Source: Leptolyngbyaceae cyanobacterium (GTDB taxonomy: Bacteria > Cyanobacteriota > Cyanobacteriia > Phormidesmidales > Phormidesmidaceae). Taken from it: a DNA stretch of 64,000 bases. A program made the position numbers and the translations under genes. Of this stretch, positions 3,316 through 57,927 are shown one piece after another. The stretch covers positions 18,255 through 82,254 of the forward strand of contig CBDHHL010000035.1 of the NCBI GenBank assembly GCA_965263355.1. The letters are read 5' to 3'. The stretch's first letter is position 1. Every line of letters begins with the position of its first letter. The notes under the pieces were generated by a model that was not told where the DNA came from, did no database searches, and saw nothing but the letters and a program-made list of their open reading frames with translations.

Positions 3316-6300
3316 CTACGACTTATATCTTGAGTGCCTTGCCAGTCGTGTTGTTGTCTTCTGCCCTAGCTTCCCGTCCTTGGTCAGTTGTACTAATTCG
3401 CCAAGTAGTCCAGTTTGTTGCATTAGTTCGCCCATGTCCAGTGCTTGGAGCTGAGCGCCCCCAGCGACAACAGACGGGATAGTAGCAGGCTGAATCAATG
3501 GTCTCCCCTGAGGGCCGTTAACTAATCCCTGGACATCATTGCGGTTCAAGACATAGCCCCCAGATCCTTGATATAGCCCGTCTGAAGTTACAGCATGGAT
3601 TGGCTGGCCAGTGGCTATCGCGTTCACTGCTGCGCTGCGGGTAGGCGCGCCAGGGACCAATATTTCCCCACTATGAATTAACGCGGGGCGGTAAGCGGGC
3701 AGAACGCCACCAGTATCTAGGCTAGGAATCTCAGAAGTCTGAGCCTGAGTTGAATTACCAAGAGCGTCAGACAGCGACTGATAAGCGGCCAGTCGTCGTT
3801 CTGCTTCGTTAGCGAGTTGAGTTTCAAGCGCCAACTGCTCCCGTGCGGAGCCAATCAGCTCTATATTTGTTTGTGCCAATGCCTGAGCAGAACTGAGTTC
3901 TTTGGCGGCAGACTGAACGCGAGCATCCCTGAGGCCAATTAATGTTTGCTCTGCTTCTATCCTGGCTGCATCAGAGATATCATCCTGTTGGTTGGCAAAC
4001 GTTTGGGCTCTTTGCCTCACTCCTTCATTGATATCGCCCAATTCTGTAGCCAGTTGTTGGGCTTCGGCAGCAACGCCACGGGCAAACTCAAAGGATTCTC
4101 GGGCTTGTTGGGCAGCTAACGCCTGACTGGCATCGTTGTTCAATTGCTGCACAACGGCTTCACGATTGCGCGCTTGTCCTATCGCTTGACGCTGTTCTGA
4201 AATTGCCTCATCTGTTCGACTGACGCCCTCGCGAGCAATTTCGGCCCCACGGGCATTCCCTGCAGCTTCGGCCTTGTCAGCCTCTAGCTCTAGAAGTGTC
4301 CGCTGGAATTGCAGCTCTCTTAGCCTGCTTTGTTCTCGCTGCGTTTCTCGTTGGGCTTCTAAGGTTCTAAGCTGATTCTGGAATTGTAGTTGGGCACGGG
4401 CAGCTGCCTGTTCAGCGGCTAGTGCTTGCGCACGGAGTTCAATTTCTTCTTTCTTTCGCTGAAGAATCTCATTGGCAATATCTGACTCTTGGGCATTGCG
4501 TCTAAAGCCCAAATTCTCTAACTCTTGCTCTAGCTGCTTCCTGCGTTCTGCGCTTAAGTTTTCATTATTGTTCAGCTCTTGACGTATCTCTAGCGCCCGT
4601 TCAGCGTCAGCTGTATCAGCGCCAGCCAATGACTGAGCTAGGCTATTGCGCTCACGGATAAGCACCAGTTGGGACTCAAATAAATCTTTTTGTTGGTTGA
4701 GCGAGGCGATAACCCGACTCTCAGCTTCCTCCCTTAGCCTCAGTCGTTCTTGTTGCAAACCCTGAAGTCGCTGCTCGTCTTCTATCTGGGTATCGATAGC
4801 GGCTACTGCTGAAGCACGGGCGGCTTCTTCTGCTGCTGCATTGGCCTCAGAAAGCTGAATTCGTAATTCAGATAATGCAATTTCGGCCTGCCGACGGCGA
4901 CGGGTGCCTTCTTCGTATACATCAACCCGTTGCTCTTGTAATTGAATTTCTTGTGCTATCCTTTCCCGTTCAGCATCAGACCTGAGCTGACCGATACGGG
5001 CTTGGATCTGTTGTTCTGTGATTTCAGCGTTTTTAGCACGTTCTGCCAGTAGTAGCTGCTCTTCCTGAAAAATTGTGCGACGGGCATTGAGGGCAATATC
5101 TCGAATGTCGTCTTGGGCTCGATCTATCTCAGCGATGCGAGCTTGCTCAATCTCGCGTTGCCCTTGGACCGCTAATGTTTTTAATTCAGCCTGAAGCGTC
5201 TGAGCTTGAGCTTTAGCCTGAGTGATAGCGGCATCGGATGCATTGCTACTGGTTAACTCCTCAACCAACGATCTCTGTGCTGTGATCTGCTCCTGTAGAG
5301 ACTGCTGTCTAAGCTGATTCAATCGTGTAATTTGTTCAGCTGTGGCCTGCTCCTCTTGGTCAATCTGGGCTTGAACTAATGAAATTTCACTATCAATAGC
5401 TGCTTTGCGTTCTGCAACTTGAGCTTCACGGATCTGTCGGGACGAGTCACGATTCAACGCTTCTCGTTCAGCCGTTAATTGCTTTTCTTGATTAAGGAGA
5501 TCATTTAGAGTCCTTTGAGAGCCTGCATCCTGAGCAAGCAGTTCTTTTTCTGTAGCGATCGCCTCTCTAGTTTGGGAGATCCGCTGTTCTAGCGCCTGTT
5601 GCCTTAATGCCGATGTGCGCCCAATAGCATCAGCGGTTCCTTTCTCTTCCTCTGAAAGACCAGCTTCAACCGCCGATAATTCCGTTTCGATGCTGGCTAA
5701 CTTTTCATCGCTAACCTGCTTTTGAATTTTTCGTACTTCATTCGCTAAGGCTAGTTTTTGCCCCAGCTCTAAACCAGGCGCTTCAATCGCTTTGTTCAGC
5801 CTGGAAATTGCATCTTCCCCAGACAATTCCCCAGCATCGAATAACTGATTGATGCCCTCTTGGAGTGTTTTGATGTTCTGAGAAACTTTTTCAAGGGTGC
5901 CGTTTGAACCATCGGCTAGATTCTTCAGTGCGCTGTCAGTGCGAGTAGCGACTTCTTCAAACGTGTCGGCAACGTCAGGGAGTTCTCTAGCCAATACTTT
6001 AAGATCATTCCCTACGTCTTGGAGACTGTCTGTGGATTCGTCTAACTTATCGTTCCATCCTTCAAGGGCTTCAATCTGAGAACGTATCGCCTTACGCTGC
6101 TTTTCAGTGACAGGGCTCAGTTCCCTAAGTGACTCGATTTGAGCTTCGTTTGCTGCGATCTGGTCCTCAGCTAATGTTCTTAGCTGTCTTCGAGCGGACT
6201 CAGATTTATCTCCAGCATTTTCAATCGAATCAATCAGCTTTTGTGAGCCTGCCGCCGCTACCTCTGTAGCATTGCCATAAGCTGCCAATGCATCATCAAC

Positions 6301-38171: not shown

Positions 38172-38353
38172 TGTTCTTGTCAGGACTCAATGTGAATTGC
38201 ACTACATTGAGTGATTCAAATGATTTCAAAACAATATGAACACAAAGTGCAGCCAAGAACAAATTGAACGGATACGACTGGGCCTTGCTCATGGACTATT
38301 AGCGCTCCCACGCGGGCCGATTGGTGGAAGCAGGATTAGGTATTTTTGATGAT

Positions 38354-39466
38354 ATGGAATTAAATCAAGTTATTCAAGGCGATTGCTTGGAAGTGATGAA
38401 CGGCATCCCTGATAGCAGCATTGATCTAATAGCAACTGACCCGCCTTTTTTTAAGGTAAAAGGGGGCGGTTCTAAAGGCAAATTCGAATGGTGGGATCGC
38501 GCCTGGGATAATTCAGCAGAATTCTTGAGATGGATTGACCAGCTAGCCGCACAATGGCAACGCATCTTAAAGCCTAATGGCAGCCTGTATTGTTTCGCGA
38601 GCACAAAAATGTCAGCACGAGTTGAGGCGTTGTTGAGTGATCGTTTTAATGTGCTGAACAATATTCGATGGCGAAAGGAACAAGGAAGACATAAAGCATC
38701 ATGCAAAGAAATTCTTAGAGGCTATTTCCCTGCATCGGAATCAATTATCTTTTGTGAACATTACGGCGCAGATAACGCAGCTAAAGGCGAAGCAGGTTAT
38801 CAGGCAAAGTGTGATGAGTTAAGAGGATTTGTTTTTGAACCGTTGCGAGCATATCTAGATGGAGAGAGGACCAAAGCCAAAATTGCACATAGACGAATAA
38901 TACATATTCTTGGGATGCGGGGGCATGACTCGCATTTTTTTAGCCCTATTCAATGGAAGTTACCTCTAGAAGACCAATACAAAACCCTCCAAGACTCATT
39001 CCCCGGTTACTTTCAACGCCCATACGAAGAACTACGTCAGCAATACGAAGAACTACGTCAGCAATACGAAGAACTGCGTAGACCGTTTATCGTATCGTCA
39101 GACGTACCCTACACCGATATATGGGACTTTCCGACAGTGCAAGGCTACCCAGGTAAGCATCCATGCGAGAAGCCATTGGCCATGATGGCGCACATCATAA
39201 ACGCTAGCTCTAAGCCTAATTCAGTAGTTCTAGATTGCTTTTGCGGTTCCGGCAATACTCTAGTAGCGGCCAAAAAGCATGGACGACATTTTATCGGGAT
39301 TGATATTGATCCTCATTGGGCAGATGTAGCCCGTGGCAAAGTCGGCAAAGAACAAAGCTTTGTATCACAGCAGGCTAGATTAGACTGGCTAAAACAACAG
39401 ACCGCAACGACTGAGGAAGCCCCCAAAAAGCAGCAGCTAAACTTATTGGATTTACTTGCAAGCTAG
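38354..39466 (+). CDS. Beta-class N4-C/N6-A DNA methyltransferase
   Basis: DLIATDPPF...HPCEKP...VLDCFCGSG motif order. Confidence 0.9.
   Translation: MELNQVIQGDCLEVMNGIPDSSIDLIATDPPFFKVKGGGSKGKFEWWDRAWDNSAEFLRWIDQLAAQWQRILKPNGSLYCFASTKMSARVEALLSDRFNVLNNIRWRKEQGRHKASCKEILRGYFPASESIIFCEHYGADNAAKGEAGYQAKCDELRGFVFEPLRAYLDGERTKAKIAHRRIIHILGMRGHDSHFFSPIQWKLPLEDQYKTLQDSFPGYFQRPYEELRQQYEELRQQYEELRRPFIVSSDVPYTDIWDFPTVQGYPGKHPCEKPLAMMAHIINASSKPNSVVLDCFCGSGNTLVAAKKHGRHFIGIDIDPHWADVARGKVGKEQSFVSQQARLDWLKQQTATTEEAPKKQQLNLLDLLAS
39022..39078 (+). repeat. 21-bp in-frame tandem repeat (YEELRQQ, about 3 copies)
   Basis: atacgaagaactacgtcagca twice plus a partial third copy. Confidence 0.85.
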
Positions 39467-39628: not shown

Positions 39629-40717
39629 ATGATGCATAGAATCCCAGAGCTACTTAAGCGGAACAGCCTGATAGGGGCTGCTATTGTTGGGCCAGACGGA
39701 AAGTTCTGGGATGTAAATGAGACTCTGTGTGAAATACTGGGTTATCAACGAGAAACGTTGCTGCGCCTAACGTTCCAGCAGATCAGCCATCCTGAAGATC
39801 TAACGCCTCAGGTCAACCCATTCCGCAGCGTAATCAATGGAGAACTTAAATCTTTCACGCTGAAAAAGCGCTACAAGCATGGACAAACAGCAGAATGGAT
39901 CTCTTGCACGTTGCACTGCGAAGGATTCCATTCTGAGTCTGGAGAATTCCTTTATTTCTTTTCCCAAGTCAGTAAGCTTGGCGACAAAGAGCTGACAGAG
40001 GTTGAAACACAAAGGCTTTCAGAAATAAAATACGCAATCAACAACAACGGATTTGCCCTGCATTATCAGCCGATAGTTGACCTGAAAACCGATGAGACCG
40101 TTGGTTATGAGGCGTTGTCACGATGGGCAAAAGACAATGAATTAATCTTCCCAGGGGATTTCTTGCCTTTACTGAGAAAGGCAAACAGTGAACACTTACT
40201 GTGCTACTGGGTAATTGAGCAAACCCAGGCAGATTCAATCAAGATTGGCCAGTGGATCAGCTTTAATATCAGCCCATTCACTCTAGCTAGAGCAGATTGG
40301 CACGATCAAAAGCTGCCTGTTAGAGGGCATATGGAGATATTGGAGACTGAGGCTGTTTCTGAGGAGATTCAGAGCCGGATTCAGTCAGCTAGGCGGACAG
40401 GCGTAAAGATCGCCCTGGACGATTTTGGCACCGGATACTGCAGCTACGATAGATTGCTGAAAGGCCAAGTTGACCTAGTAAAGCTCGATAGATCTATTAT
40501 TAGTGGCCTGCCTGCTCGCGAATCCAGAGTAATGGTTGACGCAATTGTGGCGCTATCGCAAAAACTCAGCATCAAAGTTATCGCTGAAGGCGTGGAAACC
40601 CAGCAACAGGCCGACATGTTGAAAGCAATCGGCTGTGACATGGCGCAGGGCTATTTGTTCGGTCGGCCTGCGCCACTACCCGCGATCACTCGCTCTTCGT
40701 CGGGGGCCATTCACTAG
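39629..40717 (+). CDS. PAS-EAL c-di-GMP phosphodiesterase
   Basis: PAS (VNETLCEILGY...ISHPEDL); EAL motifs YQPIV, GYEAL, FNISP, EILE, DDFGTGY, KLDRS, AEGVE, QGY. Confidence 0.9.
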   Translation: MMHRIPELLKRNSLIGAAIVGPDGKFWDVNETLCEILGYQRETLLRLTFQQISHPEDLTPQVNPFRSVINGELKSFTLKKRYKHGQTAEWISCTLHCEGFHSESGEFLYFFSQVSKLGDKELTEVETQRLSEIKYAINNNGFALHYQPIVDLKTDETVGYEALSRWAKDNELIFPGDFLPLLRKANSEHLLCYWVIEQTQADSIKIGQWISFNISPFTLARADWHDQKLPVRGHMEILETEAVSEEIQSRIQSARRTGVKIALDDFGTGYCSYDRLLKGQVDLVKLDRSIISGLPARESRVMVDAIVALSQKLSIKVIAEGVETQQQADMLKAIGCDMAQGYLFGRPAPLPAITRSSSGAIH

Positions 40718-42557: not shown

Positions 42558-42886
42558 GTTTCAGCCCCTTGAAACGGATTGAAGCCTTGGCAGCGTATAG
42601 CACCATGCCCCGCAAATCAGGGAACGTTACAGTTTCAGTCCCTTGGTAGGGGTTGAAGCCTTGGCAGCTATCTGCATCATTACTTACTGCATTACTGCGA
42701 TGATGTTTCAGTCCCTTGGTAGGGGTTGAAGCTTTGGCAGCTCAGGACCGCATAGACCAGCTCAAGCCAATAACAGGTTTCAGTCCCTTGGTAGGGATTA
42801 AAGCTTTGGCAGCTTGGCTCATGGCTAATAGTTCGTTTCCACCAGGTGCGTTTCAGTCCCTTGGTAGGGATTAAAGCTTTGGCAGC
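42558..42886 (-). CRISPR. CRISPR array, 5 x 37-nt repeats, 4 spacers of 35-37 nt; consensus GCTGCCAAAGCTTTAATCCCTACCAAGGGACTGAAAC
   Basis: Repeats at 42558-42594 (most degenerate), 42632-42668, 42705-42741, 42777-42813 and 42850-42886; internal TCCCT/AGGGA hairpin; 3' GAAAC; divergence increases leftward, implying - strand orientation. Confidence 0.96.
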
Positions 42887-43018
42887 GTAAACAGCTGCAT
42901 CCCTTTAGCCGCAAGGCTTTTATGAGCGATTCTGGCAAAGCTCAGAAAATGGCAATTTTGCCAAAGCTTTAATCCCTGTTTTTCAAGGTTCTTCTTTTGG
43001 CCTCGCTTAGCTTTGCCA
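42887..43018 (-). promoter_or_regulatory. CRISPR leader with inverted motifs and a 19-nt anti-repeat
   Basis: tggcaaagctcag (42933) / cttagctttgcca (43006) inverted pair; 42959-42977 is an inverted copy of repeat nt 3-21. Confidence 0.65.
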
Positions 43019-43208
43019 AAAAAAGTTGAGACTGTTCGCCATAGATCCGGCGAATCTATAAGGGCCTTACGGACTCCTTTTGCTCCTATCTTGCCTTTCG
43101 GCTGGTGTTTATCGGTTTCCCGACAAAAGATACCCATAGCCCCCTAGAGAACCTTAGCGCTGAAGCCATCCAACAACGTTTCCGCTGCCTTGTCGCCCAA
43201 ACTGCGAT
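43019..43208 (-). ncRNA. Candidate tracrRNA/scaffold RNA (about 190 nt)
   Basis: Upstream TTGGCG-17-TAATAT promoter; GNRA hairpins; CAGTCTC complementary to repeat GGGACTG; ends in a U-run. Confidence 0.6.
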
Positions 43209-43214
43209 GTCCTT

Positions 43215-43243
43215 ATATTAGCGTGTTATATTTTGTACGCCAA
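43215..43243 (-). promoter_or_regulatory. Promoter for tracr/array transcript
   Basis: -35 TTGGCG (43238-43243), 17 nt, -10 TAATAT (43215-43220). Confidence 0.55.
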
Positions 43244-43259
43244 GTATTTTTTAATATAA

Positions 43260-43460
43260 ATGGGAAAAGAGAATAGAGAAGGCAGGATTTACGCGCGCAT
43301 CAAGCAAAGCCGTAAACAAAAGCTAGAGCAGTATTGTAGACTTTGGGATATATCGATAGCAGACCTATTGGAACGCTTTATTGATATGCTGCCAGAGCTG
43401 CCGCAAAACGACGTACAAAATAATGAAGACGATCAAGGTAAAAGTCCAGCCGACTCCTGA
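43260..43460 (+). CDS. Ribbon-helix-helix regulator upstream of the effector
   Basis: RIYARI...KQKLEQYC...SIADLLERFIDML. Confidence 0.7.
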   Translation: MGKENREGRIYARIKQSRKQKLEQYCRLWDISIADLLERFIDMLPELPQNDVQNNEDDQGKSPADS

Positions 43461-45144
43461 AACACTGATTAAATACGAGAAAATTTGCAGAGAGCTTGAA
43501 TGGTTGTGGAACTATGTGAGGGCCGTAGCCTTACATAATCACTGCCTTGAATGGTATGCGTGGGCCGAGGGGAAAGGCGCTGACTTGTCAGGCTGCATTA
43601 GAACGCCGTTACGCTTTTCAAAGAGTGGCGGTTGGAATGGAGCGACTTGTCAGATTGCTAAAGGGGGTCCGTATTTTAAGAAGTCAGATAAAGCTCCTTT
43701 AATCCACTATGACGATGGCAAAACGAAACAAGGCTATGAATTAGTAGCTGGGGATAAGCCATATGAGCCAATAAAGCCAGAGCGTCATAGATATCGCGAA
43801 GTCTCTTATTCAAGTAAAGGCAACTCAATGACCCGTTCCAGTAAAAGCACCTCAATAACCCGCGAGCTAAAAGGAAAAGGTTGGGGCCTAGACAATATGG
43901 CGTTACTAAATGCGTCACGAAGTTCTCAGGGTCTTGATGAATTAACTTGCCATAGCGATTTTGTTGGAGGGCTACTAGCTGACTTTGAAGTTGCTTGGAA
44001 GGCTTATTTAGACGGGAAACTGCCCGCCAGAAAGCAGCCAAAGTATAAGGACGGCAAGCAGTGTAAAATTAGCACGTTGAACAATAATCAAAAAGCCATC
44101 CCGTTCAAAAAAGGACAATTCGACGGTCAAGGCTTAGTTTTAGAACCGTGCGATCGCAGCTATTCAAAAAGACTCGAAGGCTATGTAATAAAGACTTACA
44201 AACTGATATTAAAACCGAGTGGCTTCTATCTATGCCTAACTACTCAAAGTGAAGCGGAAGAAGAAAATAGATTAGAACTTAAACGACAAAAAAGAGTTTT
44301 AACCGCTATCAAGAAAAAAGTTATTGATGGCATTAAAGGGGAAAAGGAGCAAGCCAAGGCGTTAGCTAACAGTGAAGACTATCAAACGGCATTAGCCAAG
44401 AAAAAGTCAATAGAAAATGAGCTGCCATACTTGCTAATAGAAGACTCAAAATGCGCTAAACGAACCGGGCATATGGCGGGCATTGACCCTGGCGTTAAGG
44501 CAATTGTAGCGACTGACGAAGGTCATTTATTTAATCCTAACGAAAGCAGACAACGAATACACAATCATATTGAAAAGCTGCAATCCAAGCTTGATATTAT
44601 GATTGAGAAAAATGATAAGCGGCTAGGACAAAAATGGAAGGGAGGGCAGCGGCGAGCCTCCAATAACGAGCAAAAACTTAGGGGCAAAATATCCAGACTT
44701 CATGAGCGAGCCGTTAATAGTTCAAATGCTTTCAATCATAAATTATCAACCAGGTTAGCCAGAACTTATGATGTCATTGCTTGGGAGGCTACGGCGTTAA
44801 CTAACATGGGGAGGCAGACAACGCCTAAATTAGCTGAAGATGGAAGTTATTACGAGCAAAACGGCAGAACAGCTAAGGCAGGATTGAACAGATCCTTGAA
44901 AATAGCCTGTATGGGCGACCTTAGAACTAAAACAAAATCTAAATTAGAGGAAGCCGGGAAATTATACATAGAGACGGAGGCTAGATACTCATCACAACGC
45001 TGTCATTGTTGCGGGGGAAAAGGCATCAGGCCAGCCCAAGATACGTTTATTTGCGTAAATGAGAGCTGTAGCCTATTTGAACAGAAGCAAAATGCAGATG
45101 TTAACGCCGCAAGGAACCACAAGAAAAGAGGAATTACAGAATAA
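43423..45144 (+). CDS. cas12: Compact type V CRISPR effector (Cas12/TnpB superfamily), 573 aa, RuvC intact
   Basis: MKTIKVKVQPT N-terminus; RuvC-I AGIDPG, RuvC-II IAWE, Zn finger SQRCHCCG...FICVNESC, RuvC-III NADVNAARN; adjacent array. Confidence 0.85.
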   Translation: MKTIKVKVQPTPETLIKYEKICRELEWLWNYVRAVALHNHCLEWYAWAEGKGADLSGCIRTPLRFSKSGGWNGATCQIAKGGPYFKKSDKAPLIHYDDGKTKQGYELVAGDKPYEPIKPERHRYREVSYSSKGNSMTRSSKSTSITRELKGKGWGLDNMALLNASRSSQGLDELTCHSDFVGGLLADFEVAWKAYLDGKLPARKQPKYKDGKQCKISTLNNNQKAIPFKKGQFDGQGLVLEPCDRSYSKRLEGYVIKTYKLILKPSGFYLCLTTQSEAEEENRLELKRQKRVLTAIKKKVIDGIKGEKEQAKALANSEDYQTALAKKKSIENELPYLLIEDSKCAKRTGHMAGIDPGVKAIVATDEGHLFNPNESRQRIHNHIEKLQSKLDIMIEKNDKRLGQKWKGGQRRASNNEQKLRGKISRLHERAVNSSNAFNHKLSTRLARTYDVIAWEATALTNMGRQTTPKLAEDGSYYEQNGRTAKAGLNRSLKIACMGDLRTKTKSKLEEAGKLYIETEARYSSQRCHCCGGKGIRPAQDTFICVNESCSLFEQKQNADVNAARNHKKRGITE

Positions 45145-45347
45145 TGCAAGCCTCAATCACCATCTCCATACGCTCAAAAACCCTGGCTAAAGCTCAACAG
45201 CTAAACATCCCGGTTGAAGTGATTTTGAGCGAGGAGCTATCAAGGGTGGCCGACAGGCTCCTGCTGCCTTTGATTCAGGAATACGGAATGAACTGCGATA
45301 GAACCGATTACGTCCCAAGCTGGATAGAGCAATCGGCCCAGCCATAA
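45144..45347 (+). CDS. Small RHH/antitoxin-like protein
   Basis: SITISI...AKAQQLNIPV..IL.EEL; TAATG coupling to the effector. Confidence 0.5.
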   Translation: MQASITISIRSKTLAKAQQLNIPVEVILSEELSRVADRLLLPLIQEYGMNCDRTDYVPSWIEQSAQP

Positions 45348-45519
45348 GATGGATGCCGATTTTCAGTTGCCAGCAGCTGCATTCACTAACTCACGAATGG
45401 CGAGAAAGATCTAACCATTATGCCGTCTTAGTTGTGCATTATTTCCTAAGCCAGGGCTAAACCCTTGGCGTACAACAATGATGATATCATGCTTTGTGGT
45501 GTGTTAAGCAGGTTTAACG

Positions 45520-46980
45520 TTGACCGCAAACAGTAGTTTCGACCCATCTCAGGCCATTGGGTATTATCGTGTTTCGACGCAACGGCAGGAGCAAGAGGGC
45601 CATAGTCCCGAGCGTTATTTAGAGCGTCTTGAAGCGGTCGGCATTGCTCCTACTGATATTTATTCTGATGCTGAATCCGGCGGCATATTCGAACGCAAGG
45701 ATTTACAAAAAGCATTAGCCAGGTTGAAAAATCCTAATAAGAAATACTTTGTAGTCCCGTATCACTCCAGGGGTCATCGAGATATTGGAGTATGGGTAAA
45801 AATCAGGGATGCACTTTTAGAAAATGACTGCCAATTAATCGAGCTGGACAAAGGGATCAAGCCTATCGATCTGACCAGTGCAGCCGGGAACCTGCAAGCT
45901 AACCTGGATGCCACATTTGCACAGCATCAACGAGACCAAGCACGGGAGCACAGTGTAAAAGGGCACGCATTCAGGCGTAGTCAAAACAGGATAGTTAATC
46001 CGCCATTTGGCTATAAAAAGGACAGCGATCAGCGGCTAGTAATTAATGATGACATTTTCCCTGGTTCTGACGGAAAGACTTATCGGGAAATCGCTATCGA
46101 AATGATCGATACGTTAATTGAGCTTGGAGGGTATCGGGCCACTATTCGGGCAATGTGCGGTCGTTATGGCGAAAAGCATCCTGAGAGATGGGGAGTCGCT
46201 AAAAACTTCCCTGTCAGTACTAAGGGATTTATGAGGTGGGTCCAGTCTCCCGTGATTCGTGGTTATCTGGTTGATTCCCCTGGCAAGCCTAATGAGCTAG
46301 TCAGGAAGGGAGGCCATGAGGCGATTATGGATCCTGACCGATGGCGAGCTGTGCAAGTAACTGTCGAAAATATTGCCTCTGCCCCTAATCCGATGAACGA
46401 TGGGAAGCCCAGAAGCAGAAAGCCATTGGCTGGCAAGATTAAATGCGGCTTATGCGGTGGTCGGCATAATAACAGCACAGTCCATAGGCAGGGGAAAACG
46501 TATTCATATCTGGTTTGCCGTGGAGGAGCAGAATCAACCATTAACAGTCGAGTGAAAAGACAGTGCCCTTATAAAAATTCAATTAAAACGGATCAATTCT
46601 TCAAGGAAGTGATTTCACAAGTTTGCGCTAGGGCGCTCGAAATTGCTCAAGAATTTGCTGAGCCGAACACTGAAGTGAACCCAGAAATAATAAAACTCAG
46701 AAACCAGATACAACAGCTACAGGCAATGGCGGATCCGGAATTGAGTGGAGTGATCCAGGTTAAGCAGCAGCAACTATCAAAGCTAGAGCAAGCCACTGGG
46801 CAAGACGTAGATCCAAACGACGTTGACATTTACGAAACGGTTGCTGCTGATCCTGAATTCTGGGAAGAACTAGCCCCCAGTGAACTAAGGATAATTCTTG
46901 ACTCACTAATCAAGCAGGTTGTTGTTCATGGGAAACAACTTTCGCCACAACAACGGGTAAAGGTTCAATTTTACCGTTAG
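45520..46980 (+). CDS. Large serine recombinase (phage integrase)
   Basis: GYYRVST catalytic Ser, D..SG, SRGHR, PFGY recombinase domain, Zn ribbon CGLCG...YLVC, coiled coil. Confidence 0.9.
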   Translation: MTANSSFDPSQAIGYYRVSTQRQEQEGHSPERYLERLEAVGIAPTDIYSDAESGGIFERKDLQKALARLKNPNKKYFVVPYHSRGHRDIGVWVKIRDALLENDCQLIELDKGIKPIDLTSAAGNLQANLDATFAQHQRDQAREHSVKGHAFRRSQNRIVNPPFGYKKDSDQRLVINDDIFPGSDGKTYREIAIEMIDTLIELGGYRATIRAMCGRYGEKHPERWGVAKNFPVSTKGFMRWVQSPVIRGYLVDSPGKPNELVRKGGHEAIMDPDRWRAVQVTVENIASAPNPMNDGKPRSRKPLAGKIKCGLCGGRHNNSTVHRQGKTYSYLVCRGGAESTINSRVKRQCPYKNSIKTDQFFKEVISQVCARALEIAQEFAEPNTEVNPEIIKLRNQIQQLQAMADPELSGVIQVKQQQLSKLEQATGQDVDPNDVDIYETVAADPEFWEELAPSELRIILDSLIKQVVVHGKQLSPQQRVKVQFYR

Positions 46981-47295: not shown

Positions 47296-47549
47296 GCTGC
47301 CTCCCGCCGTCGCTGGACAAATTGATTGTTTCGGCCTCGCGCATCTTTAGTGATTGCCCCCCTTTGGCCATACCAAAACATGAGCTGGGCTGTCGATTGA
47401 GCCCCTACTCTATTAACAGCTAGCTTGATGTGAGAGCGAATCACAACAGGGGTTATTCCTAGTTTGCTCGCAATTTTTTTGTTATGCATTCCCTGAGCCA
47501 TCATTGAAACAATGCTGTGCTGTCTTGGCGTTAGTTCAAGTGGATTCAT
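47292..47549 (-). CDS. LuxR-type HTH protein
   Basis: LTPRQ...MAQGMHNKKIASKLGIT...H; ATG 47549 overlaps the upstream stop. Confidence 0.8.
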   Translation of the reverse strand: MNPLELTPRQHSIVSMMAQGMHNKKIASKLGITPVVIRSHIKLAVNRVGAQSTAQLMFWYGQRGAITKDARGRNNQFVQRRREAA

Positions 47550-48511
47550 GCTGTCAATACCTCCCAAATATCCAGTTGTTTTTTGCTTGTAGTTTTTCGA
47601 CCGTCTACGTAGGCCTCGCCGTCCACAGGCAAGCAAGCTGGAGACAGCCAGAGTGTTTCTAGTTCTCGATTGTTGTTGTTCTTTCCTGCATATCCTTTGC
47701 CACATTTCCAGCGCACTTTACGCCAGTCTCCAGGCATCTCATGTTCGCCTTCATAGCCGCACAACACGATCCTTAGGCTAGGGTTTTTCCCGTTCTCCGT
47801 GGCCCATTCTCGAACTTTTTCGCTCACTTCAGTTTCTACTGAGTAAAGATCTGCTCTTAAATCCTGACGATAGGGTGGGTCTAACAAAATCGCTGTAAGC
47901 CCTAATTTATGGGTAGGAGATGAGCCTAAAACCCGTTGCCAGTCCCCACAACAAACACGAACACGCCGCAGCCTGTCAGCCAGTGCATGAAGATACTCAA
48001 GCAAGTCCCCCTGTCCAGGGTCACCTAAATGAGGTCTTTTGCGATGGACTCCCTGTCCAGGGTCACCTAAATGAGGCCGCTTCAATGCAGCGACCTCATT
48101 TAGGTGGCACCAACCCGAGCCAATCCAGCAGCACAGCCCCCACACCCACCAGCCAGCAACCTTGACATCGTAAAAGTCAGGATCTCTTAGCATCTTTTCC
48201 CTGAAGTCAGCACGAGAGATCAGCCAATTATGCCGAGCATGCAAGTCAGCTTCATTCACTGGCTGATCGCACCAATGGGAAACGCTATCAGGGTCATGCT
48301 GCAATGCACGCCAAAAATTGGCGACATAACAATCTAAGTCGTTGACTGTTTCAGTATGTTGCAACGGATCGTACCCTTCCCGTAACAACACAGTGGCCAG
48401 ACTGCCCGCGAACGGTTCTACATAGTTTGGGACGTCCCCAAACGCTTGCCAGATCAAATGGGCGGCTCGACTTTTCCCGCCAAACCAAGGGAAAGGTGCT
48501 TTAAGCTTCAT
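47546..48511 (-). CDS. D12-class (Dam-like) N6-adenine DNA methyltransferase
   Basis: FPWFGGKS, YVEPFAGS, VNDLD, LDPPY; internal KRPHLGDPGQG duplication. Confidence 0.88.
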   Translation of the reverse strand: MKLKAPFPWFGGKSRAAHLIWQAFGDVPNYVEPFAGSLATVLLREGYDPLQHTETVNDLDCYVANFWRALQHDPDSVSHWCDQPVNEADLHARHNWLISRADFREKMLRDPDFYDVKVAGWWVWGLCCWIGSGWCHLNEVAALKRPHLGDPGQGVHRKRPHLGDPGQGDLLEYLHALADRLRRVRVCCGDWQRVLGSSPTHKLGLTAILLDPPYRQDLRADLYSVETEVSEKVREWATENGKNPSLRIVLCGYEGEHEMPGDWRKVRWKCGKGYAGKNNNNRELETLWLSPACLPVDGEAYVDGRKTTSKKQLDIWEVLTA

Positions 48512-57258: not shown

Positions 57259-57927
57259 TCAGAAATCCTCCTGAAAGCAGACACTTATTAACTGTCTCCC
57301 AATCCATTCCGTGTATGCGGGAGGAATGGATTGTGCTAGCTCTGCCTGAGTCATCCATGGGATGTCCATAGCCTTTCTAGCTTCGGCAACCTTGAAGTTG
57401 TGCCCTGCAACGGTTACATAGCCCCCGACTGATAGTCGGCTCATCCCTCGATGACTACCTGTGCTCCCATCAACTGGCACAATTGGAGGACTCATCAACC
57501 AAGGATTTATTTCGAAATAACGATCTCGAATGACTTGCAATCCAAACATATTCCCCCGCAAAACAAGGGGATTGATTAAATGTTTTTTTGCGCCTGACAC
57601 GTTTTCAATTACGTACGGCTTCCCAGTGGCTTTTAATTTGTCTCTAACAGAATCAATAAGTTTGGGGGCAGTTGATTTACTGAGACTTTTTGTAACACTG
57701 TAGCTCTGGCATGGCGGGCTAGCGTGAATTACATCAAACTCAGCTATATCAAGAGTTTCTAGCGCTTCAAGCCAATCCATCTGATAAAACTCGAAGGGGT
57801 AGTGTGGCTGAGGCTCGTGATCTATGCCGACAACCTCAAACCCTGCTTTGTGATAGCCCATCGCTGCGCCACCGGCGCAACAGAATAGGTCCAAAAGTTT
57901 TCCACATTGCGTCGGTGGGTGGTTCAT
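57259..57927 (-). CDS. C5-cytosine DNA methyltransferase (short form)
   Basis: LDLFCCAGG, ASPPCQ, IENV. Confidence 0.85.
   Translation of the reverse strand: MNHPPTQCGKLLDLFCCAGGAAMGYHKAGFEVVGIDHEPQPHYPFEFYQMDWLEALETLDIAEFDVIHASPPCQSYSVTKSLSKSTAPKLIDSVRDKLKATGKPYVIENVSGAKKHLINPLVLRGNMFGLQVIRDRYFEINPWLMSPPIVPVDGSTGSHRGMSRLSVGGYVTVAGHNFKVAEARKAMDIPWMTQAELAQSIPPAYTEWIGRQLISVCFQEDF

Follow-up and report, generated by a model that had tools for sequence, protein, structure and literature searches.

The window, by which we mean the whole 64,000-nucleotide stretch of DNA that was analysed, carries a CRISPR array, a cas12p gene and, between effector and array, a tracrRNA whose predicted direction of transcription is towards the array (Table 1). 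As the array lies on the minus strand and cas12p on the plus strand, the RNA and the array are directed away from the gene. The last repeat of the array is degenerate, and related strains carry other spacers in the same array, indicating spacer turnover. Family scans took in 8 and 20 of the 40 window ORFs of at least 150 aa. Terminase, portal, head protease, major head protein, primase and integrase were recognised among the 20 ORFs scanned, which defines a phage setting, and neither cas1/cas2 nor the Tns genes (tnsB/tnsC/tniQ) were recognised in the scans of 8 and 20 ORFs. No thioredoxin-motif gene was found within the window. Named cyanobacterial genomes contain relatives, as do two cultured cyanophages, and to judge from these the phage host is probably a cyanobacterium.

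Two small ORFs flank cas12p, one overlapping its start and a second on the other side at 45144-45347 (+). Neither has a significant Pfam match; by eye, we take the products of 43260-43460 and 45144-45347 to resemble ribbon-helix-helix regulators. A comparable small ORF lies between the divergent RNA and the effector of L020, one of the homologous loci described below. A near-identical 17-nt box is present at 43233-43249, around the -35 element of the tracrRNA, and at 45459-45475, before the integrase, and is possibly a shared operator. The phage also encodes a PAS-EAL protein (39629-40717, +) and three DNA methyltransferases (38321-39466, +; 47546-48511, -; 57259-57927, -).

Table 1. Features of the Cas12p locus in window coordinates.
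Feature	Position	Strand	Detail
CRISPR array	42558..42886	-	5 repeats of 37 nt ending TGAAAC, 4 spacers of 35-37 nt
Distal anti-repeat	42959..42977	-	19/19 complementary to 5' half of repeats 1 and 2
U-run and hairpin	42995..43024	-	U-run is the 5' arm; 43021-43015 pairs with 43001-42995
Proximal anti-repeat (R:AR-2)	43028..43034	-	7 bp, repeat positions -11 to -5
Cas12p tracrRNA core, 181 nt	43028..43208	-	covariance model match 43031-43207
Stem 5	43054-43049/43040-43035	-	6/6 pairs change on both sides
Stem 4	43060..43079	-	GNRA loop 43070-43067; 4/4 outer pairs covary
Stem 3	43166-43163 with 43085-43082	-	100% paired in 17 homologues
Lineage-specific stem-3 insert, 77 nt	43086..43162	-	model alignment [77] vs [18] in Cas12p-1
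Stem 2	43172..43189	-	6/6 pairs change on both sides, 17 homologues; probability 0.98-0.99
Stem 1	43193..43207	-	loop GUUU 43202-43199, nt 7-10
Sigma-70-type promoter, predicted	43215..43243	-	-35 43243-43238, 17-nt spacer, -10 43220-43215
66-aa ORF	43260..43460	+	upstream of, and overlapping, cas12p
cas12p, 573 aa	43423..45144	+	ATG at 43423; PDB and fold match
Serine integrase of host phage	45520..46980	+	family scan; context, outside the RNA

In the PDB, the 573-aa protein matched Cas12p (9JFS) with an E value of 4e-106, the next match being at 9e-10. The predicted model of the effector (pLDDT 86.5) was matched by Foldseek to 9JG3 and 9JFS (TM 0.75/0.69, E 6e-44), with the next match at E 1e-11. 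The profile libraries returned C2c8/Cas12u2 and Cas12f as best matches, that to C2c8/Cas12u2 lying below cut-off and over the RuvC part only; the PDB search settles the family as Cas12p. Cas12p is described in the accessible text of a preprint as the 'Cas12 hacker' (type V-P, PDB 9JFS and 9JG3; bioRxiv 10.1101/2025.01.20.633832, hereafter the Cas12p preprint), a 2026 Nature Microbiology version of which is cited in the accessible part of PMC13728456; the same text counts twelve proteins in the family and leaves their host open. The window effector shares 37% identity with Cas12p-1 (tblastn). The protein of locus L003 is residue-for-residue identical to that of 9JFS over 1-613, and a quick tree of 54 rows groups the window with L003 in a 41-row clade (SH-aLRT 93). 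Within this clade it belongs to a 16-row branch whose proteins are shorter and whose support is weak.

The RuvC triad is kept (D355/E455/D559, corresponding to D378/E478/D582 in Cas12p-1), as are the PAM residues (D157/N222/Q223/K287 for D197/N261/Q262/K332), the zinc finger and the thioredoxin pocket residues W44, Y45, W47, L55, I59, L63, C76 and I78. A segment of about 45 aa with W102/F105 and the C-terminal tail are absent, and the L51 position is K; mutations of W102, F105 and L51 weakened thioredoxin binding in Cas12p-1, according to the Cas12p preprint. A complex model of the effector with a cyanobacterial thioredoxin scored 0.83 and the best of 3 controls 0.00, the mark for this score being reached by 116/157 solved pairs vs 2/215 mismatched pairs. 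Contact agreement between runs was at least 96%, the pLDDT of the partner at least 92, and in the model C76 lies at the active site. A similar complex has already been solved, and the score therefore shows likeness and not binding. No effector relative was found on plasmids at E 1e-20, none in viral contigs scanned with the single protein, and a profile scan with the short subclade added no new viral loci.

In order to evaluate the RNA as a member of a family, homologous loci were compared. Rfam gave no match in the window, and the 197-nt stretch taken alone had a fold z of -2.02 (7/200 shuffles as good). Three scans yielded 44 loci, several of which are the same contig or near-identical. An RNA-start motif was present at 25/27 loci with a near full-length effector relative, the two exceptions being contigs that end inside the gene, and at 0/17 loci with a RuvC-level match. 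In most loci the RNA follows the stop codon and precedes an array on the same strand; L002, L006/L100 and L020 have an additional second copy that is divergent like that of the window. The exact 22-nt motif was found 0 times in viral contigs. A degenerate motif scan gave 60 loci, those with an effector or array being real and L100 alone being new; the other loci, with neither adjoining, were rejected as chance matches, and the 13-nt motif alone with 2 mismatches stood at chance level.

Seventeen copies, with the window left out, were aligned by plain MAFFT (alignment A3), from which a covariance model was built; A3 was used and not A4, because the latter includes 2 chance matches and is model-fitted. 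In A3, both partners change in 21/29 pairs and pairing holds in 95.2% of cells, vs 31-48% when partners are slid. The model, which had not seen the window, matched 43031-43207(-) at 39.9 bits (E 7e-9, filters off), and its next-best match reached 9.5 bits (E 0.49). Run on 75 sources from which duplicates were excluded, it yielded 25 matches, of which 23 are family copies and 2 are chance matches (E 0.035-0.048). Counted from an invariant A, the L003 copy carries the expected letters at 9/9 of the positions named in the accessible text of the Cas12p preprint (7G-10U, 42U, 43U, 64G, 77C, 78G, 79A), and its nt 118 falls six bases into the anti-repeat. A43208 aligns with this invariant A, which is nt 1 of the published numbering as reproduced on L003. 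Together, the numbering fit and the model match indicate that the window RNA is the orthologue of the solved tracrRNA, with a predicted +1 at 43208. The homologue covariance that the original prediction had proposed as a check is borne out, and its analogy with Cas12f and Cas12k was right in kind, although the PDB and fold matches and the identity of L003 place the family in Cas12p.

The promoter motif that it had read as TTGGCG-17-TAATAT is present on the minus strand where it was placed, and so are its four hairpin sequences, its anti-repeat and its U-run. Scoring 8/12, the predicted promoter is under the scanner cut-off and hence unlisted. Homologous copies have TTGAC (16/20) and a TAnnnT box (18/20) at the promoter position, and a natural variant has a -35 box one base nearer consensus. 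This predicted promoter would serve the tracrRNA and probably the array as well.

Stem 1, missed by the original prediction together with its pseudoknot loop, has U-A as outer pair in the window and C-G in 20/23 rows, and a pair probability of 0.02 in the naked RNA. Folded alone, the window RNA reaches -59.9 kcal/mol, against -53.6 kcal/mol if the conserved helices are imposed; as the naked RNA prefers another structure, the conserved fold would depend on protein or crRNA. Of four hairpins proposed earlier, the first (43174-43187) is stem 2, with a pair probability of 0.98-0.99. Stems 3 and 4 and the GNRA loop had also been overlooked. By analogy with the solved homologue, in which loop nt 77-79 touch stem 3 according to the accessible text of the Cas12p preprint, the GNRA loop of stem 4 is predicted to dock on stem 3. 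The fourth proposed hairpin (43041-43059) has the sequence but not the register: the true stem is at 43035-43054. Stem 5 has 89.7% of its cells paired in 21 homologues (0/500 shuffles as good) and a pair probability of 0.61-0.95. The rejected register has 60.7%, which is shuffle level (231/500), and a pair probability of 0.00; its four outer pairs (ATAG with CTAT) are formally possible in 15-20/21 rows, do not covary and compete with stem 5.

The insert in stem 3 forms a hairpin at 43153-43138 and a stem, 43132-43127/43092-43087, that closes the hairpins 43125-43110 and 43102-43093. One variant haplotype, found in contigs from three runs and two samples of one study, has 9 changes within the RNA, 8 of them in the insert. 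Six of these 8 keep pairing or better it, one by improving a G-U pair; another falls in a loop, and the last of the 8 breaks a terminal pair. The ninth turns GUAA into GUGA in the loop of stem 4, which is still GNRA. The two remaining hairpins of the original prediction lie in this lineage-specific insert. The 43110-43125 hairpin is supported, as 5 variant changes all keep its pairing and one is compensatory. That at 43093-43102 folds with probability 1.0, but its sequence is invariant. Stem 3 is likewise expanded in L001 (4876-5025), the closest locus with context (48% identity). The RNA of L039 (4536-4699) is rearranged and scores just 22.7 bits.

In 16 cassettes the register in which the bases 3' of stem 5 pair with the repeat is constant, the paired segment directly preceding the four terminal repeat bases. 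The mean run is 7.25 bp with the cognate repeat vs 3.28 with swapped ones, and 7.0 vs 2.85 bp after collapse to 9 distinct repeat ends (p 4e-5; 50,000 permutations, with kinship ignored and the L039 start set by hand); it is merely 3 and 4 bp in 2/16 cassettes. In the window, the anti-repeat proposed earlier at 43034-43028 does pair with the repeat over 7 bp with one G-U, and co-folding with the repeat end reproduced this pairing. The covariance model and the cognate pairing both support the proposal of a scaffold RNA with a short split anti-repeat. The U-run reported behind it consists of seven T at 43024-43018, but no terminator is called there and it is not canonical. A comparable pairing of the U-run arm was seen in 9/15 cassettes including the window, by a loose pattern and with a poorer arm in 2.

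The loop GUUU of stem 1 is predicted to form a pseudoknot with the repeat-terminal AAAC (R:AR-1), a duplex that is visible in the cryo-EM structure of the homologue according to the accessible text of the Cas12p preprint. GUUU stands opposite terminal AAAC in 16/16 array cassettes. In cyanophage CrV-01T (MH636380.1), the loop reads GUUC in 10/10 distinct copies examined, the arrays that follow terminate in GAAC, and the second duplex also carries a matching change. On these sequences, the exchange of GUUU:AAAC for GUUC:GAAC reads as a compensatory change across the pseudoknot. L002 (4895-5417, +, and 37-895, -) has two tracrRNA-array cassettes flanking one effector, and L006 with L100 likewise; the cassettes of L002 and of L006/L100 have different repeats, each with its own matching anti-repeat.

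With the RNA family, five stems, 77-nt insert, 7-bp anti-repeat, effector family and intact triad established, we read the interval as a Cas12p (type V-P) tracrRNA homologue and the likely scaffold for the divergently encoded 573-aa Cas12p, with a probability of about 0.9. Transcription would start at A43208, and tracrRNA, leader and array would probably be transcribed together as a single precursor. The tracrRNA would hold each repeat twice, by the loop GUUU on the terminal AAAC and by 43034-43028 on the next seven bases. The GNRA loop of stem 4 would contact stem 3, and the 77-nt insert would form a peripheral domain jutting from it. Host thioredoxin would activate Cas12p, which could then cut spacer-matching DNA beside a GTN PAM; the targets would most likely be competing phages or elements of a cyanobacterial host. 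Host Cas1-Cas2 may provide the spacers in trans.

A longer RNA of about 260 nt, reaching to about 42950 and holding a three-part anti-repeat of which the 19-nt match would drive pre-crRNA processing, is a plausible variant to which we give somewhat less than even credence. The distal segment could pair in trans if it belongs to the tracrRNA, or in cis if leader and repeat form a stem. The match of the distal anti-repeat is 19/19, shuffled leaders reaching at most 8, and a terminator-like hairpin (42963-42950) lies right behind it with none at the U-run; L007, L008 and L036 have contiguous anti-repeats of about 30 nt. In 10 distinct cassettes, the window left out, the leader segment pairs its own repeat better (-17.9 vs -12.2 kcal/mol, p 2e-5), but this test is partly circular because the segment overlaps a leader motif with a core common to several repeats and the L001 segment was placed by hand. 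Other loci reach just 5-11 exact bases, and in the solved complex the ordered part amounts to only 118 nt for the tracrRNA and 10 nt for the repeat, according to the accessible text of the Cas12p preprint. This longer RNA is compatible with the tracrRNA reading and shifts its 3' boundary.

We regard as rather doubtful the idea that the window represents a second Cas12p subtype, which would have lost the REC/thioredoxin-pocket segment and the tail and gained a multi-hairpin RNA domain in stem 3, so that RNA would replace protein, and in which a 4 + 7 + 19 bp anti-repeat, spanning a 50-nt loop-out, would clamp the whole repeat for processing. Two short effectors do go with an expanded stem 3, those of the window (77 nt) and of L001 (about 42 nt), but in L020, where the effector match is also short (537 codons), the stem-3 interior is 18 nt.

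The window's 4 spacers have no protospacer in the window, the homologous loci, phages or plasmids; the single plasmid match was to the repeat and not to a spacer (E 0.3). The comparison within the window and the homologous loci covered 189 distinct spacers. Among the spacer matches in homologous loci a GTN flank was present in 1/4, the others being TTG, ATA and TGG. An L006 spacer (5437-5475) matches a sequence on the contig that carries it, namely the second tracrRNA gene there, with a single mismatch (position 4). L002 spacer 2 and L014 spacers 4 and 10 match cas12p genes of sister phages or their flanks with 0-2 mismatches. As far as these sequence matches go, such spacers against Cas12p systems suggest phage-versus-phage targeting. 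L005 spacer 9 and a possible guide at L124 (the record 56880 copy) are a 7-nt tandem repeat that is also present in the cyanobacterial locus L037; they could aim at host chromosomal repeats.

It is very improbable that the interval is a silent relic or a mere array leader in a system that has decayed or works independently of the RNA. The weak consensus of the promoter, the modest fold z, the degenerate last repeat and the lack of protospacers among the sequences searched would fit such a relic, but the changes of the close variant preserve pairs, spacers turn over among strains, the RuvC triad is intact and every family-invariant RNA motif is retained. That the RNA serves as guide scaffold to V-U2 (C2c8), Cas12f or Cas12k, or to a regulator that does not cut, as the best library profiles (C2c8/Cas12u2 and Cas12f) might suggest, is least probable and largely refuted by the PDB search, the L003 identity and the fold comparison: the C2c8 profile NF038192 gives 173 bits against a cut-off of 350 and covers the RuvC part alone, the Cas12f profile NF049972 gives 12.5 vs 450 bits with fold matches at TM 0.41 or less, Cas12k and Cas12f structures are matched at E 2e-8 or worse, the V-U2 protein of cyanophage CL131 lies outside the clade in the quick tree and its genome has no RNA-model match, and the triad is intact with no tnsB/tnsC/tniQ recognised in the 8 and 20 ORFs scanned.

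The window shares with Cas12p a phage origin, an effector of 500-700 aa and an adjacent array with a 37-nt repeat ending in AAAC; the pseudoknot loop at nt 7-10 (AAAC:UUUG), stems 1-5, the positions of the GNRA-stem 3 contact and a short second duplex; and the RuvC triad, the PAM residues and the thioredoxin-contact cysteine. Unlike Cas12p-1, its effector has 573 and not 622 aa, being without the REC/TB segment of about 45 aa and the C-terminal tail; its RNA core would have 180 ordered nt, against 118, owing to the stem-3 insert; its cassette is upstream and divergent, whereas that of Cas12p-1 is downstream of the gene; and it has a perfect distal anti-repeat. Cas12k (V-K) systems likewise have a long tracrRNA before an array of 37-nt repeats, with a split anti-repeat and a pseudoknot; in the accessible sources they also have a joint precursor, as in Anabaena (PMC9938897, accessible part), and a GTN PAM, both of which are predicted for the window. 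In contrast to them, the window effector has an intact triad, no Tn7 genes were recognised in the ORFs scanned and neither Rfam nor any model-level comparison gave an RNA match.

According to the accessible text of the Cas12p preprint, the Cas12p guide is similar to TnpB omegaRNA in its stems 1-4 and 6, and the TranC model, as given in the accessible part of its source (bioRxiv 10.64898/2026.03.27.714800), derives split tracr/crRNA from a right-end RNA. Unlike these, the window has a separate promoter and RNA gene and a true multi-spacer array, and its RNA does not overlap the 3' end of the protein. The V-U2 (C2c8) system of cyanophage CL131, a minimal TnpB-like effector with an array according to the accessible part of PMC6293099, is similar in being a cyanophage-borne pair of this kind, but its RuvC part alone aligns (37% of the query) and CL131 has no RNA-model match. 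A literature search, with most subscription papers outside its scope, returned no description of the window locus, the insert or the CrV copies; the supplement of the Cas12p preprint (family alignment, RNA-seq, a divergent 'hacker-2') may already cover the window's subclade.

The mechanism of Cas12p as such is already described. The window RNA is a real tracrRNA of a divergent, shorter phage Cas12p, and what is specific to it is the expanded stem 3, the divergent layout and, possibly, a third anti-repeat. It offers a boundary-defined guide design for a smaller Cas12p with 37% identity to the sole solved member. With its insert and its lack of the pocket segment, the locus provides natural variants that bear on which RNA parts are dispensable and on whether thioredoxin dependence is family-wide, and the relatives in named cyanobacteria and two cultured cyanophages make the native role testable.

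The dispersed copies in CrV-01T are possibly more interesting than the window tracrRNA itself. The RNA model finds 12 of them, 10 distinct (L114-L117, L124-L137), and every copy has a separate -10-like box and a GUUC loop. Mini-arrays whose repeats end in GAAC follow some of the copies; others have no array in the stretch read. The phage has one cas12p-like gene, annotated 'transposase', with no adjoining array. Cr-LKS4 has 7 matching places. In CrV-01T record 49691 (L129), the anti-repeat, a short loop, a repeat remnant and GAAC are fused in one piece, which, by its sequence, resembles a natural single guide.
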